DNA of 64,000 bases from the IMG/VR virus record IMGVR_UViG_3300032327_000792. One strand, 5' to 3'. Positions 2,580-16,655 of the stretch are shown here, in pieces. This DNA is from a virus (lineage: Duplodnaviria > Caudoviricetes). A program made the translations under genes and the position numbers. The notes below the pieces were generated by a model, which was not told the DNA's origin, made no database searches, and saw nothing but the letters and a program-made list of their open reading frames with translations. Position 1 is the stretch's first letter. Every line of letters begins with the position of its first letter.

Positions 2580-2834
2580 TTACTTGCTTGTTGTTGCTTT
2601 TTTCAAGTTTGATTGAGCTTGTTCGGCGGCTGTTTGGAAAGCCTTGCCAAATGACTTGGCAGCAACCAAATTAGCACGAGCAAAGTTTGCGTTTGCGGCG
2701 TTCAATGTCAACAATGTTTCTTTGATCTCTGCCTGTGGCAAATATGTCAATACTGATGCCACTGACTTTTCTGTTTGGTCTACGATTGCGTCTACGTTGA
2801 ACATCTGTTCGATTTGTTTTGTAAATTGTTCCAT
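2580..2834 (-). CDS. Small amphipathic helical protein (weakly phasin-like)
   Basis: Start moved to MEQFTK (AAGGAGA RBS); 84 aa, Ala-rich, helical. Confidence 0.6.
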   Translation of the reverse strand: MEQFTKQIEQMFNVDAIVDQTEKSVASVLTYLPQAEIKETLLTLNAANANFARANLVAAKSFGKAFQTAAEQAQSNLKKATTSK

Positions 2835-2919
2835 TTTGCTTCTCCTTGAGTTTAAGCGAGTTTTAAAGTTGCTACTGCCCGACCTATTCGGCACAGTATT
2901 TCTTTAACAACTTTATTTA
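2835..2919 (-). ncRNA. ROSE-like RNA thermometer leader, copy 1
   Basis: TAAATA, then stem TACTG-TGCCGA..TCGGG-CAGTA, then CTCGCTT-AAACTC-AAGGAG (UCGCU opposite the SD, bulged G). Confidence 0.65.
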
Positions 2920-2934
2920 TCAAGTTTAACAGAC

Positions 2935-2957
2935 TTTATGTTGCTTTGCAACATAAA
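2935..2957. terminator. Perfect 10-bp hairpin downstream of the desaturase
   Basis: TTTATGTTGC-TTT-GCAACATAAA; weak U-tract on the minus strand. Confidence 0.4.
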
Positions 2958-2973
2958 TTTACACCTTTTTTGA

Positions 2974-3690
2974 CTATTTTGGCAAAACTGCTCTGGGTTT
3001 TGCAAGCCCTAAAGTTTCAAGTATGCGTATATACATCCAACCAATATCAAACTCCCACCAACGCTGACTAAACTTTGGATTTGCACCATCTGCATGGTGT
3101 CCATTGTGTAACTCCTCACCGCCGATCCAGAACGCCCAGGGAATCAAATTGGTTGAAGTATCTGGTGTATTGGTATTTCTATATCCCCACCAATGTGCTA
3201 GACCGTTGATAACTCCGGCTGCCCAAAATGGTACCCAAATCATCTGAATACCCCAAATTACAAACCCCCACCAACCAAACAAAGCTAGATTGATCAACAA
3301 CATAATCGAGATACCCAGACGGCTATGCTTGCTGTAGATGTTGCGTTCCGCCCAATCATCAGGAGTACCAATGCCTAGTCGTTCAACCATGTCACGGTCT
3401 TTGCTGGCTTCGTGATACAAAAACGCACCACTAAACAACACACGCTTGATACCGTGTATTTGTGGTGAGTGCGGATCTCCTTCTTGATCACTGCGTTGAT
3501 GGTGCCGGCGGTGTATAGCTACCCACTGTTTTGTCACCATGCCTGTGGTTAGCCAAAGCCAAGCTCGCATAAAATGATTAACTGCTGGGTGAAATGTCAC
3601 TGCCTTGTGAGTTTGTGATCTATGTAAGTATAGAGTAACACAGGCTATAGTGATTTGTACCATCACCAAGGTATAGATTAGTTCAGTCAT
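2974..3690 (-). CDS. Membrane fatty acid (acyl-CoA/acyl-lipid delta-9-type) desaturase
   Basis: Three His boxes HRSQTH, HRRHH, HNGHH; hydrophobic segments; WWEFDIGW motif. Confidence 0.9.
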   Translation of the reverse strand: MTELIYTLVMVQITIACVTLYLHRSQTHKAVTFHPAVNHFMRAWLWLTTGMVTKQWVAIHRRHHQRSDQEGDPHSPQIHGIKRVLFSGAFLYHEASKDRDMVERLGIGTPDDWAERNIYSKHSRLGISIMLLINLALFGWWGFVIWGIQMIWVPFWAAGVINGLAHWWGYRNTNTPDTSTNLIPWAFWIGGEELHNGHHADGANPKFSQRWWEFDIGWMYIRILETLGLAKPRAVLPK

Positions 3691-6585: not shown

Positions 6586-7625
6586 TCAACCGCCCGGATT
6601 ATCTTCCACTTGAATCCACCCAGACACTGCCATGCAAACACATTGTCGTTTATGCTGGGATTGGCGTTGAATACCACATCGCCCTTGGTGCCAGCATAGT
6701 TTGGTACTTCTGTACCATGACTGATTCTGTGTACTCCTACCCGCAATTTTTTAACAGCAGTGACACCATCAATGTCAATTTCCACTGCCGGGGTACGGTT
6801 AACACCTAGCACAAGATTTTGTGATCGTCCTGTGCCAATGTAGGCTGACCGGTCTTTGAACTTGCCTGCTAGGATGGAAACTTCTTCGTCCCACACACTC
6901 AAGGCCATTTCTGGTTCTTGAGTATTGATTCCTACTCGCTTGTTGAGCACACTCACAGTGTTGTAGATATGTGCTTCTCCGGCAACTGTTAATTCTTTGA
7001 GTTCGCCCACTGACTGTAAATTGCTGTTGGTAATTTTTCTTGACAGTGTGTCTCCGACCACTACACGTACCCCGTCAATCTGAACCTGGGCAAAATCAAT
7101 ACCATTTTCACGTATTTTATTTTCTACATCCGTAACCAATGATTCTCGCCATTCTGTGTTTAAACGATCAAGAGTTTTTTTGCTAATATCTTCGCTGAGT
7201 GTTTGCCATGCATGGTTGTCAGTGTTGATTGATCCTGTGACAGTGAGTTCTTTGATTCGAGCCGACGTGACCACTTCTATTCTGTTGGCGGTCAAACAAT
7301 GCTCAACCACAACGTTTTCATCTAACACAGTTAACTCAGGATTGTGAGCATGATCTTGTATGCCGGGCGTATGCAATCTTGCAGCAACTCGGCTGTCCAA
7401 ATCACTCATGTTTTCGTCTACACGTTGCTGAATCAATCCTCCAACATCAACAGAGCTTAACCCAGCAACAACTCGGCGAACCATTGCTTGATTGACCAGT
7501 TGTTCAATTTTTTCTACCCACGCTGGATCTGTGCCAAGATGTTGAATGGTGTTTACTACTTGATCATTGATGGATTTTTCAATCTGTTCTTCGACTAATT
7601 TATTTAGAGCTGTTTGGTCAAGCAT
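6582..7625 (-). CDS. Hypothetical protein (possibly structural)
   Basis: 347-aa ORF coupled to neighbours; beta-rich C-terminus (KGDVVFNANP...WQCLG). Confidence 0.6.
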   Translation of the reverse strand: MLDQTALNKLVEEQIEKSINDQVVNTIQHLGTDPAWVEKIEQLVNQAMVRRVVAGLSSVDVGGLIQQRVDENMSDLDSRVAARLHTPGIQDHAHNPELTVLDENVVVEHCLTANRIEVVTSARIKELTVTGSINTDNHAWQTLSEDISKKTLDRLNTEWRESLVTDVENKIRENGIDFAQVQIDGVRVVVGDTLSRKITNSNLQSVGELKELTVAGEAHIYNTVSVLNKRVGINTQEPEMALSVWDEEVSILAGKFKDRSAYIGTGRSQNLVLGVNRTPAVEIDIDGVTAVKKLRVGVHRISHGTEVPNYAGTKGDVVFNANPSINDNVFAWQCLGGFKWKIIRAVE

Positions 7626-11541: not shown

Positions 11542-11544
11542 TTG

Positions 11545-13596
11545 ATGTTCAAAAAAGTTCTACTTAGCTCCTGGACTGCTCTATTAACCCTTGTGTTGAT
11601 AGTGGGCATACGTGTAGCAGATCCCTCATTTGTCGAAAGCGTAAGACTACGGTATTTTGACACGCTGATTACTGCCAAAGCTCCAACTGAGAATAACATC
11701 TATACTGTCAACATAGATGAAGCCGCGCTAGACAAATATGGCCAGTGGCCTTTACCGAGAGATCAATATGCTAAAATCATTCAAGATTTGTATCAGCGTG
11801 GTGCTGGTGTTGTGGTTCTTAATGTGCTTATGGCTGAGTCTGATCGCACCGGTGGAGACGTTGTACTAGCCAACGCACTAAAACAATACCCTGTGGTGCT
11901 TCCTAGTGTGCCCGGTGACAAAACAAAGAACAATCCACGACAACCCGGGTCAGCTGTTATTGGTGCCGAGTACACTGATCTAATTGTACAGTATCCGGGA
12001 TTAATTGCCAACGTTCGAGCTCTGGAAACCGGTGCAGTCGGAGTTGGTATTGTAAACACCTTGCCCGAAGTAGATGGTGTTAATCGTAGACTACCCATGG
12101 TAGTTGCTGTCAACGGACGAGTATATCCCAGCATGGCCATGGAGACTCTGCGTGTAGCCGCAGGTGATTCAACGTTTCAAGTCAAACTATCAGAAATTGG
12201 CGTAGAAAAGATGCGCATTCCGGCCGTTGGAGCTATCACCACAGACAACCTAGGACGTGTATGGGTTGATCTAAGTCAGCAATCAAAGTCGGCGAGTTTA
12301 ATGAACTTACCCAAAGACTTTGGTGGGGCTATTGTCATAGTCGGAGCAACGGCTGCTGGTATCGCCAACCCTGTTCCTACTGCCAAAGGTGCTGTATGGC
12401 CGCAGGAGTTTCAGGCCATGGCCATTGGCACAATGATCAATGGTGTGGTCATTGCCAGACCAGCATGGGCCAACGGTGCTGAACTTTTGACAATGTTGGC
12501 TGTTGGTGTTGTACTATTATTTTTAACAAGGTGGACTTATGTTGGTATTGCGTCGGTTATTGGTTTCATTGCTGTATTTGCGTATGGCAGTTACTTTATG
12601 TTTAGCAGTAGTCTTTGGCTATTTGACATTACCGGGCCAATCGCAGGAGTTGTCCTTGTTGCGCTCCATGCTTACGGAGTCAAGTTTGTTTCAGAGTTCT
12701 TACAAAAGCAACAGATAAAGAAACAGTTTGGCACATACCTATCGCCAGCTATGGTAGAAAGGTTACAGCGGAATCCAGAGCTACTACAACTAGGTGGTGA
12801 GTCAAGAGAACTTTCGATTATGTTCACTGACGTTCGTGGATTTACCACAATCTCAGAACACTATGGCAAAGATGTACAAGGCTTGACCCGAATCATGAAT
12901 CGCTACATGACAGCCATGACAGCAAAAATTATAGAGAACCAAGGTACCTTAGACAAGTATATTGGTGACGCACAGATGGCTTTTTGGAACGCACCCCTGG
13001 ATGATGCTGACCATGCCAAGAATGCTGTGCGTACAGGTTTACAAATGATGGGAAGTTTAGATGCATTCAATCAAGAAATTACAGCAGAAGGCATACCAGC
13101 TTTTGGTATGGGTCTTGGGATTAATACTGATACCGTTGTGGTCGGGAACATGGGCAGTGATCAGCGGTTTGACTATACTTGTCTCGGCGATGGCGTCAAC
13201 TTGGCAGCTCGTCTGGAAGGGCAAAGCAAGCCGTACGGTGTCAAAATCGTACTGGGCCCGAAGACGGCGCAACTGGTAAAAGACGAATATTTTGTGCTTG
13301 AGCTAGATTGTATAGCAGTCAAAGGCAAAAAAGAAGGTGTAACAATTTACACAGTGCTGGGTCGTAACAACGAGATCAATCTAGACAAAGGTGACGTGCA
13401 AATGCACGAAGCTATGTTGGTATTGTATCGTCAACAACGGTTTGACCAAGCCATTAAGTTCTGCCAAGACCTCAAGGGCAGATTTGCAGGTGAGATGGAC
13501 CAATACTACGACGCTTGGATAGAGCGTTGTGAGGAGATGAAACATGTTGAATTACCAACAGATTGGGACTCAGTTTACAGAGCAGTTTCAAAATAA
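11545..13596 (+). CDS. CHASE2-domain class III adenylate cyclase
   Basis: N-terminal TM, CHASE2 (IDEAAL..GQWP.PR; PEVDGVNRRLP), 3 TM, catalytic MFTDVRGFT, DKYIGDA, YTCLGDGVNLAARLE, VKGK. Confidence 0.93.
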   Translation: MFKKVLLSSWTALLTLVLIVGIRVADPSFVESVRLRYFDTLITAKAPTENNIYTVNIDEAALDKYGQWPLPRDQYAKIIQDLYQRGAGVVVLNVLMAESDRTGGDVVLANALKQYPVVLPSVPGDKTKNNPRQPGSAVIGAEYTDLIVQYPGLIANVRALETGAVGVGIVNTLPEVDGVNRRLPMVVAVNGRVYPSMAMETLRVAAGDSTFQVKLSEIGVEKMRIPAVGAITTDNLGRVWVDLSQQSKSASLMNLPKDFGGAIVIVGATAAGIANPVPTAKGAVWPQEFQAMAIGTMINGVVIARPAWANGAELLTMLAVGVVLLFLTRWTYVGIASVIGFIAVFAYGSYFMFSSSLWLFDITGPIAGVVLVALHAYGVKFVSEFLQKQQIKKQFGTYLSPAMVERLQRNPELLQLGGESRELSIMFTDVRGFTTISEHYGKDVQGLTRIMNRYMTAMTAKIIENQGTLDKYIGDAQMAFWNAPLDDADHAKNAVRTGLQMMGSLDAFNQEITAEGIPAFGMGLGINTDTVVVGNMGSDQRFDYTCLGDGVNLAARLEGQSKPYGVKIVLGPKTAQLVKDEYFVLELDCIAVKGKKEGVTIYTVLGRNNEINLDKGDVQMHEAMLVLYRQQRFDQAIKFCQDLKGRFAGEMDQYYDAWIERCEEMKHVELPTDWDSVYRAVSK

Positions 13597-13750
13597 TTAT
13601 TTTTTAAACGAGATATTTGACGGTTGGGCGTGGTTCATGCTCAAGCTAATGTATGCACCTTATGAATTACCTACTCAGTTAGGAGATGCCGAGTCCTGGA
13701 TAAAGAACGCAGGGTTAAACGGTGCTTGTTGGTTTGATATGTTTAATCCA

Positions 13751-13768
13751 AAGTAACACAACTGTAAC
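13751..13768 (+). promoter_or_regulatory. PhoB/OmpR-type direct-repeat box
   Basis: AAGTAAC-ACAA-CTGTAAC, 11-bp period; near-identical to 16638-16655. Confidence 0.5.
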
Positions 13769-13790
13769 ATGTTAAGTTATAAATAATTCT

Positions 13791-13858
13791 AATCGAGTGC
13801 AATGATCGAGCACAGTTGGAACTCGTAACCAACACTAAAGAGCCTAGGCTCTTTTTTT
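13791..13858 (+). ncRNA. Candidate small RNA with its own promoter and terminator
   Basis: TATAAATA at 13778-13785; hairpins GTGC/GCAC and GTTGG/CCAAC; terminator AAAGAGC-CTAG-GCTCTTTTTTT; no ORF. Confidence 0.55.
13837..13858 (+). terminator. Intrinsic terminator
   Basis: Palindrome AAAGAGCCTAGGCTCTTT followed by a T-tract. Confidence 0.8.
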
Positions 13859-13935
13859 AATGACTTGTAATATTGTGTGTAATATTTTGTCCACAACAAT
13901 TTGTTAAATAACTACACTACAAGGAGGAGTAAGCC

Positions 13936-14094
13936 ATGAAACAAGAAAAACTTGTTCAAAAGCTGTATCGGGCCTGCTTCGACCACGACGCCGAGAAGAT
14001 TGCAAAACTTCGCCAAGAAGAATTTGCCAAAATCTTGAAACGCAAGGCCGAAGGCAAGTCTTTTACTGCTGAGTGGACTGTTGTACAGATATAA
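13936..14094 (+). CDS. Small basic hypothetical protein (52 aa)
   Basis: [21 protein letters not shown]...; TAAATA and AAGGAGG RBS. Confidence 0.75.
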
Positions 14095-15070
14095 GACTGC
14101 GTTGAAATATGTGCCAACAGGCTTCCCAGGTCCATCGTTGAGAAGCTTGTTGAACTCTGTTGCGATCTAACAACAAGCAGTGTTCCACAGCCGTGATTAG
14201 ATTTTCATCCATCCATCCATTGATACCATTTTCCACAACATCTATGGGTCCTTGCACAGGAAATGCTGCCACTGGAGTGCCTTGTGCCATGGCTTCAATC
14301 ATTACCAAGCCAAAAGTATCAGCTCTGCTGGGAAACACAAACACATCGGCGTTGTAGTATTGATTCACTAGATCTTGTCCTTGCTTGTAACCCAGGAACA
14401 ATGCATTGGGTAACAATCTCTGTGCTTCTTCCCTATAGGGGCCATCACCAACTATGATTAGAAAATAACGATTCTGTATTTCGACCAGTTGATCTAGTCC
14501 TTTTTCGGGACTGACGCGACCCACACACAACACAATGGGCAAGTGTTTGTGGTCGACTCGTAGGATATTGGGTTCAATAGATCTATCTACTCCGCGAGCC
14601 CACACAGTGAGATTTTTAAATCCGTGTGAGTGTAAATCTTTGCGTATGGTTTCAGTTGTGACCAACACTCTGTGACTGTTTTTGTGAAACCAACGCAGAT
14701 AAGCATAGGTCCAGCGAGCAGGAACTCCATACATCACAGATAAGAACTTAGGAAAGTCAGTGTGATAGCTAGTGTTATAACTATAACCATTACGCTCACA
14801 CCACCAGCGAGCAAAAAGGCCCACAGGTCCTTCTGTAGCGATGTGTATAAAGTCCGGCTGTATCTCCTTAATTTTTTTTGAGATACCCCAGGGCCACGAG
14901 AGCTTAACTTCAGGATAGCCAGGGCAATCACAATGAGGGAACTGCCCGGGATCAAGATAAACAACGTCATAGCCGTTGCCAACAGCATGACTTTCCAAGT
15001 TTTTGAAAGTTGTGACCACGCCATTGATCTGCTCCTGTGTGTTGTCCGTGACAATTAATATTTTAGGCAT
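14063..15070 (-). CDS. agt: GT4 glycosyltransferase, Agt-like diacylglycerol glycosyl/glucuronosyltransferase
   Basis: [78 protein letters not shown]; start moved to MPKIL. Confidence 0.8.
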
Positions 15071-16606: not shown

Positions 16607-16637
16607 ACACTATTTACAGTTTCTGCAACATTGCCCT

Positions 16638-16655
16638 ATTACATTTGTGTTACAT
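16638..16655 (-). promoter_or_regulatory. PhoB/OmpR-type direct-repeat (Pho-box-like) upstream of plcP
   Basis: ATGTAAC-ACAA-ATGTAAT, 11-bp period, ~30 nt upstream of the plcP start. Confidence 0.55.

Follow-up and report, generated by a model that had tools for sequence, protein, structure and literature searches.

The element described here lies in a 64,000-nt stretch of DNA, hereafter the window, whose gene content is that of a phage and includes a ribonucleotide reductase, a DnaB-like helicase, a ligase, GroEL and a tail-fibre protein. A gene at 11542-13596 encodes a CHASE2/class III nucleotide cyclase with more than 580 relatives in viral contigs, the best 80 of which share 57-77% identity with it. 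Its last 53 nt are overlapped, in another frame, by a 70-aa open reading frame (ORF; 13544-13756) of uncertain reality, for which the relatives found were weak (36% identity in L071 and a short match in L001) and whose stop codon (13754-13756) falls inside a Pho box. To the right stands a 52-aa ORF (13936-14094) with a strong ribosome-binding site, and its sole relative among 80 cyclase-homologue loci is in L061. Between these two ORFs extends a stretch (13757-13935) for which an earlier note, made from the letters alone, had claimed an independent structured small RNA of ~70 nt at 13778-13858, either trans-acting or ligand-sensing. The features on which that claim was built, namely TATAAATA, both hairpins, the terminator, the CGAG and CUCG motifs and the lack of an ORF, were all recovered in place; the RNA stretch holds no meaningful ORF, just mechanical frames of 30-36 aa on the minus strand. 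The RNA itself is real, and its extent is corrected to ~68 nt, at ~13791-13858. As far as sequence can tell, we lean toward reading position 13791 to about 13858 of the + strand as a stand-alone gene for a structured small RNA (Table 1).

Table 1. Coordinates of the small RNA gene and its predicted control elements in the window
Feature	Position	Strand	Basis
Pho box, two direct GTAACA repeats with an 11-bp period, GTAACACAACTGTAACA	13753..13769	+	exact pattern match
-10 element TATAAATA, conserved part TAAATA at 13780-13785	13778..13785	+	family spacing
46-nt family core	13790..13835	+	match to covariance model R1, 60.7 bits, E = 2e-17
Predicted 5′ end of the RNA, with the conserved tail AAUCG(A)	13791..13796	+	start inferred from -10 spacing
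Hairpin P1, GUGC/GCAC, loop AAUGAUCGA; in DNA letters, arms GTGC (13797-13800) and GCAC (13810-13813), 9-nt loop AATGATCGA	13797..13813	+	minimum-free-energy fold; all four pairs covary
Loop 1 CGAG, proposed partner of loop 2 CUCG (13822-13825)	13807..13810	+	covarying alignment columns
Hairpin P2, GUUGG/CCAAC, loop AACUCGUAA with YUNR-type CUCG; in DNA letters, arms GTTGG (13815-13819) and CCAAC (13829-13833), loop AACTCGTAA	13815..13833	+	four of five pairs covary
Intrinsic terminator, stem of 7-8 bp then 7 U; stem AAAGAGCC-TA-GGCTCTTT at 13837-13854, run of seven T at 13852-13858	13837..13858	+	terminator scan and fold

The minimum-free-energy structure from RNAfold consists of exactly three hairpins, P1, P2 and the terminator. 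Folded alone, the window copy has a z-score of only -2.0 to -2.1 and 7-8 of 200 shuffles fold equally well, so that the single-sequence fold is not decisive. The element is, however, one copy of a widespread RNA family, whose carriers are large freshwater phages and one family of Burkholderiales. The exact 19-mer of hairpin 2 recurs in 11 other IMG/VR viral contigs amid unrelated flanks, and degenerate scans combined with a structure filter located the whole two-hairpin core in more than 120 distinct phage contexts. The 46-nt consensus of the core reads AAYCG-N-P1 (4-5 bp)-loop A(N0-2)GAUWGR-P1′-N1-3-P2 (5 bp)-loop AACUCGUAA-P2′, in which the AAYCG tail is invariant or nearly so in alignments A2 and A4, and loop 2 is nearly invariant among the phage copies. 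A variant subfamily, seen in eight loci (L338, L341, L347, L361, L363, L381, L403 and L042), has the 5′ tail AAAGCG and a 7-nt loop 1 (GACGAAC, GACGUAC or AGCGUAU); P2 is kept, as is loop 2 except in L042.

Conservation and covariation were the points on which the earlier note had staked its proposal, and the covariation is strong. Model R1 was built from 65 distinct phage copies, and the covariation test used a MAFFT alignment of 65 distinct copies, made without fitting to the structure. In the alignment 95.7% of the cells pair, eight of the ten stem pairs show double, both-side changes, and the covariation score is reached by none of 500 shuffles; pairing drops to 20-49% in controls with slid partners, and the covariation persists once the bacterial copies join the alignment. 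G-U pairs fall on the + strand (17, versus 2 non-pairs, with the 7-27 pair left out), which indicates that folding takes place in the RNA of the + strand. Against R1, true members reach 58-73 bits and pattern-only chance matches at most 25 bits, and the window copy is the sole match in 64 kb, the runner-up reaching 10.6 bits. With one copy in the window and one or two in each of five large phage contigs of 105-354 kb, including a single copy in a 354-kb contig rated 98% complete, a dispersed mobile regulatory repeat of the PeSL-like kind is ruled out. In the homologous intergenic region of related phages, by comparison, the element is not conserved. Only 3-5 of the 80 cyclase-homologue loci carry it and there is hardly any conservation of the 70-aa and 52-aa ORFs beside it, so conservation belongs to the element, which is preserved at other loci, and not to the locus.

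The family is new, having neither a model in Rfam 15 nor a description in the searchable literature, and the earlier note, which could match the RNA to no family, is borne out on this point. Rfam 15 gave no match over the element at E ≤ 10 (window 13000-14600), none on six canonical phage loci at E ≤ 1, and none at E ≤ 1 on three loci taken from the bacterial matches, among which L420 alone resembles a true copy; a blastn search of INPHARED with 13000-14600 as the query likewise returned no match. Searching the literature for the topic and for the loop sequence itself revealed no description of the family, and the single sequence match was to an unrelated mouse paper. The general kind, a small RNA controlled by a regulator, is familiar.

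The promoter of the window copy can be read against those of its relatives. Before phage pstS genes stand TGT[C/A]A[T/C]A repeats with an 11-bp period and then TAAATA, an arrangement that corresponds in sequence to the canonical proteobacterial Pho box. The Pho-like box noticed earlier before the element is real and is one of only two exact GTAAYA-N5-GTAAYA matches in 64 kb, the other (16637-16653, minus strand) standing before plcP. From the box, 11 nt lead to TAAATA and 5 nt more to the AAYCG core, and the distance from box end to core is 22 nt (21 nt in one context); this spacing is fixed in 15 of the 20 box-bearing contexts, that is, the window and 14 other phage contexts. Such a geometry is the one predicted for a PhoB-activated sigma-70 promoter in which the Pho box replaces the -35 element, and it places the predicted +1 at the conserved AAYCG, at ~13791. 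The claim that the RNA has a promoter of its own is thus supported in silico, and a 3′UTR-derived small RNA without its own promoter does not describe the window copy, in which a 34-nt gap holding box and -10 element separates the upstream stop codon from the core. The part of TATAAATA that had been proposed as a promoter element needs narrowing: TAAATA is conserved, and the full TATAAATA is not the conserved element. Since the family does not conserve TATAAATA and the window shows no excess of it (3 found, 1.7 expected), it is read as a -10 element and a T4-type late promoter is ruled out; TAAATA as a -10 core is without the final T usual in sigma-70 promoters. A second Pho-like direct repeat, of TGTAATA with a 12-bp period, lies 3′ of the terminator at 13866-13884 and is followed after 20 nt by another TAAATA (13905-13910), with the spacing of the plcP promoter, and the downstream gene therefore has its own predicted promoter.

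Bacterial relatives extend this phosphate connection beyond the phages. A pattern scan of the genome collection was swamped by chance matches, and among the matches listed only those in L216 and L303 are real; the bacterial homologues came from R1 searches centred on these two genomes. Such searches found a match in 26 of 121 genomes of one Burkholderiales family, three weak matches in 150 other genomes of the order, and none in 150 genomes of the class. The type I copies comprise about a dozen orphan loci with varied neighbours, where the core forms the 5′ domain of a ~130-nt gene resembling a small RNA. Their layout is a Pho box (CGTCAAATCACCGTCACA), a CACAAT -10 element, a leader of ~15 nt and the core, followed in most by some 45 further nt and in all by a terminator. 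The type I loci L420, L435, L437-L442 and L448-L451, which have no Rfam match, show a conserved CCGUC...UGUCCGGUA in most copies, and in two genomes rsgA lies downstream of the type I gene. The type II bacterial copies sit in tRNA arrays. The phage RNA thus has the appearance of a 5′ domain captured from a Pho-regulon RNA of the host, which also points to this Burkholderiales family as the likely host group of the phages.

Taken together, these observations make it moderately probable that the element is a phage copy of a host phosphate-stress RNA, controlled by a PhoB-type regulator and probably acting in trans. Upon phosphate starvation, the host PhoB would activate the RNA at the same time as pstS and plcP of the phage; the transcript would fold into its two short hairpins and be ended by the independent intrinsic terminator. 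Through its fold and the U-turn-like loop AACUCGUAA, it may then act on a conserved host partner, RNA or protein, proposed to be the same one that the host's own Pho-regulated RNA engages, so serving as a phage-carried copy of a host phosphate-stress riboregulator. Trans action, which we infer, is favored by the cores located between tRNA genes, the orphan bacterial type I genes and the low number of one or two copies per phage genome. Against it, most phage copies are part of an mRNA, only 20 of 122 contexts having an upstream Pho box of their own, and this fits a role in cis as well.

Target prediction in the phage DNA, which the earlier note had suggested, gave no support. Complements of loop 2 are not enriched in the window (12 found, 10.3 expected) or among 3,990 starts of translation in phages (21 found versus 18.8 expected). 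In one phage lineage (L167, L202, L348, L353, L402 and L418), a gene whose product begins MAKTK lies ~400 nt downstream of the core, and its start region UUUUACGAGGGCAUUCAUG contains a 7-nt complement of loop 2 that overlaps the ribosome-binding site; such complements are not enriched across loci. Pairing of loop 1 with codons 3-6 of plcP fits L003 and L108 and not L011 and L101, and was taken as a coincidence of codon usage.

How the core is placed in phage genomes, surveyed over 122 unique contexts, bears on the possible roles in cis. The phage copies are embedded in a phosphate-stress gene island that comprises pstS, plcP-agt, the CHASE2 cyclase and porin O/P, and within it the element moves around. 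An intrinsic terminator follows the core directly in 86 contexts. A plcP-like metallophosphoesterase lies within 450 nt downstream in 24, eight of which have no intervening terminator; in these roughly eight cases the start codon comes 13-23 nt after the core, as do cyclase start codons elsewhere (13 nt before that of the CHASE2 cyclase in L160). The other genes found downstream include one for a GATase/BPL_N-like protein, AhpC, the L160 cyclase and unrelated genes. An unlikely reading is that the element is a cis-regulatory leader akin to a riboswitch, whose pseudoknot binds a small molecule or ion of phosphate stress and controls read-through into, or translation of, the next gene, be it plcP, the cyclase, the GATase-like gene or, in the window, the 52-aa ORF, targets to which the same low probability attaches. 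A compact covarying fold with nearly invariant loops would suit a leader, as would the plcP-like gene downstream in those 24 contexts, and the occurrence of the core both with a terminator and, closely preceding plcP and cyclase starts, without one amounts to two kinds of expression platform, a hallmark of riboswitches.

The terminators themselves speak otherwise. A search for antiterminators in 86 nascent-transcript folds found none, with on average 9% of the bases in the 5′ half of the terminator paired upstream; the 5′ halves do not pair with the core, and terminator sequences vary freely among family members. This absence across the 86 folds disfavors a classical terminating riboswitch, and the ligand-sensing alternative of the earlier note is left without support from an expression platform. 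Nor is the ribosome-binding site visibly sequestered in the leader-type copies. In the contexts inspected for it, the downstream gene has a predicted Pho box promoter of its own beyond the terminator, as in the window (13866-13884), and such a second Pho-like box is present in 8 of the 86 terminator-bearing contexts. Moreover, the downstream genes are heterogeneous, 41% of the copies resemble 3′ UTRs, and the bacterial type I and tRNA-array copies have no consistent downstream gene. The terminator of the window copy, confirmed by terminator scan and fold, is structurally independent of the core; together with the covariation and the promoter geometry, this supports the independent structured small RNA with its own promoter and terminator that had been proposed at the outset.

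The resemblance to 3′ UTRs stems from the 50 contexts in which an ORF of 150 codons or more ends with its stop codon right against the core; this ORF is most often pstS (PBP_like_2), and porin O/P, a GT2 glycosyltransferase and the cyclase are found in its place as well. With a terminator immediately 3′ in so many contexts and a distribution among related phages as patchy as expected of a portable cassette, one may picture a mobile module at the 3′ (or 5′) end of Pho-regulon transcripts that stabilizes, processes or terminates them, the window copy being a leftover of such a cassette. We consider this improbable: plain stability hairpins need neither invariant 9-nt loops nor a covarying contact between loops, 15 copies, the one in the window among them, are preceded by a promoter of their own whose predicted start coincides exactly with the core, and the bacterial copies are orphan genes or members of tRNA arrays.

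The contact between the loops deserves scrutiny of its own. In the joint alignment A4, which was fitted to the model, columns 25/48 hold A-U in 62 sequences, G-C in 21, G-U in 4 and another combination in 1, and columns 24/49 hold G-C in 87 of 88. Bacterial copies combine a loop 1 ending in GG with the loop 2 sequence AACCCGU, and phage copies a loop 1 ending in GA with AACUCGU; the window copy adds a fourth loop pair, C13807-G13825. This covariation largely splits two clades, bacterial and phage, and may rest on few independent events, and the signal is therefore only suggestive. Contact between the two loops, G-R pairing with Y-C, is nevertheless probable and would make the fold compact and pseudoknot-like. 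The earlier note had paired the loop CUCG with either of two upstream CGAG sites, at 13794 and 13807. The site at 13807 is backed by the covarying pair; the one at 13794, in the 5′ tail, is an allowed alternative that fits almost as well, the rival pairing of the tail CGR with the same loop 2 bases being compatible in 95.6% with 11 exceptions. Kissing of loop 1 ACGA with loop 2 UCGU was rejected, as those loop 1 positions vary freely.

A fold of this kind could also make the core a sensor that binds some signal of phosphate stress, whether small molecule, ion or dedicated protein, and is deployed by host and phages in several formats. This seems quite unlikely, and the formats envisaged with it, an orphan RNA, an mRNA leader, a 3′ UTR and a passenger of tRNA operons, are to be taken with equal reserve.

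Placement among tRNA genes is a recurrent feature of GC-rich phage contigs and, as noted above, of bacterial type II copies. In L158 (2680-3132), L216 (6352-7291) and L423-L434, the core lies between tRNA genes, often just 3′ of another hairpin, and L216 contains at 6682-6735 a truncated tRNA-like sequence without an anticodon arm. The arms of the core have dimensions that we take to recall tRNA, P1 with its 4-bp stem and A...GA loop resembling a D-arm and P2 with its 5-bp stem and CU-CGU-AA loop an anticodon or T arm, and the covarying loop pair would stand for the contact at the tRNA elbow. A decoy that binds a tRNA-recognizing host factor would account for these likenesses and for the tRNA genes that flank the core in several GC-rich loci of phages and bacteria. 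It is nonetheless a very improbable account, for ARAGORN calls the flanking tRNAs and not the motif, and the Rfam tRNA model does not match it. The core has neither an acceptor stem nor a third arm, and a full tRNA-like fold was not found in the GC-rich copies; loop 2 has 9 nt and not 7, and loop 1 is without the GG of D-loops. Such a decoy also gives no link to phosphate control.

Finally, chance hairpins in a spacer before the ordinary terminator of a cyclase operon, for which the modest z-score of the single sequence and a terminator that could serve upstream genes too might be adduced, have a practically negligible probability, contradicted as they are by the comparative data: the copy scores 60.7 bits against a family that counts over 120 copies in phages and over 25 in bacteria and shows compensatory changes, and the promoter geometry is fixed.

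Compared with known systems, the phage copy of a host phosphate-stress RNA that we favor combines familiar traits in an unfamiliar way. Almost all known regulators of phosphorus metabolism in bacteria are reported to be proteins, and the PhoS small RNA of Bacillus is induced by phosphate starvation and originates from the 3′ UTR of phoPR (PMC11522486). The family shares with PhoS a predicted control by the phosphate two-component regulator and an origin from, or adjoining, the 3′ end of a Pho-regulon mRNA. There is no kinship in sequence or structure: PhoS is a chromosomal RNA of a Firmicute, whereas the carriers here are phages and one Burkholderiales family, and the phage RNA has a covarying two-hairpin core with a probable loop-loop contact.

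Like DicF (RF00039), the element would yield a short, terminator-ended, phage-encoded noncoding transcript presumed to act on host functions. Unlike small RNAs of the DicF type, with their unstructured seeds, its conserved bases lie in the loops of a compact fold and its expression is tied to a Pho box; the sole DicF match in the window, at 13.9 bits, is elsewhere and a chance one. The preQ1-I, guanidine-III and fluoride riboswitches, which we take to be small pseudoknotted aptamers followed by terminators, have the size of the core (~45-50 nt) and, like it, combine covarying stems and invariant bases in the loops with a tertiary pairing and an intrinsic terminator close by. The core differs from them in matching no Rfam riboswitch, in lacking competition between terminator and antiterminator, in the heterogeneity of its downstream genes, and in having copies in 3′ UTRs and tRNA arrays. 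The put RNA of phage HK022 is a two-hairpin processive antiterminator that acts in cis on RNA polymerase. It too has ~70 nt and two hairpins just upstream of terminators in a phage transcript; there is no likeness in sequence, and the core described here is found also as an orphan bacterial gene and in tRNA arrays.

The closest parallel in biological setting comes from cyanophages, whose pstS and phoA are auxiliary metabolic genes under host PhoB control: in both cases a host-derived gene resides in a phage phosphate-stress island behind a host-type Pho box, and the cargo here is an RNA, not a protein. To our knowledge, the phage phosphate genes described so far (pstS, phoA and phoH) all encode proteins, and the literature searches found no RNA counterpart of a phage Pho-regulon auxiliary gene. 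Three aspects of the family are unusual, namely, its carriage by phages in phosphate-stress islands, its compact fold with a loop-loop contact, and its several transcript formats.

In bacteria and in their probable phages alike, the family is wired to a Pho box. Should the RNA act on the host response, phages would be seen to acquire regulatory RNAs, in addition to enzymes, for steering the physiology of nutrient stress. Through its bacterial homologues the target could be sought in culture, and the family also hints at which hosts a large group of uncultured jumbo phages from freshwater infects. The sensor reading, if true, would make it the first sensor of bacterial phosphate control that works at the RNA level, and also the first case of an auxiliary regulatory RNA taken by phages from the host Pho regulon. 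For RNA databases, it represents a clean new family, whose members number over 120 in phages and over 25 in bacteria. One further structured RNA was seen near a phage pstS gene: a 250-kb phage contig (L101) carries at 2815-3396, ~2 kb upstream of pstS, a permuted two-piece tmRNA that scores 78.8 bits against RF04321.
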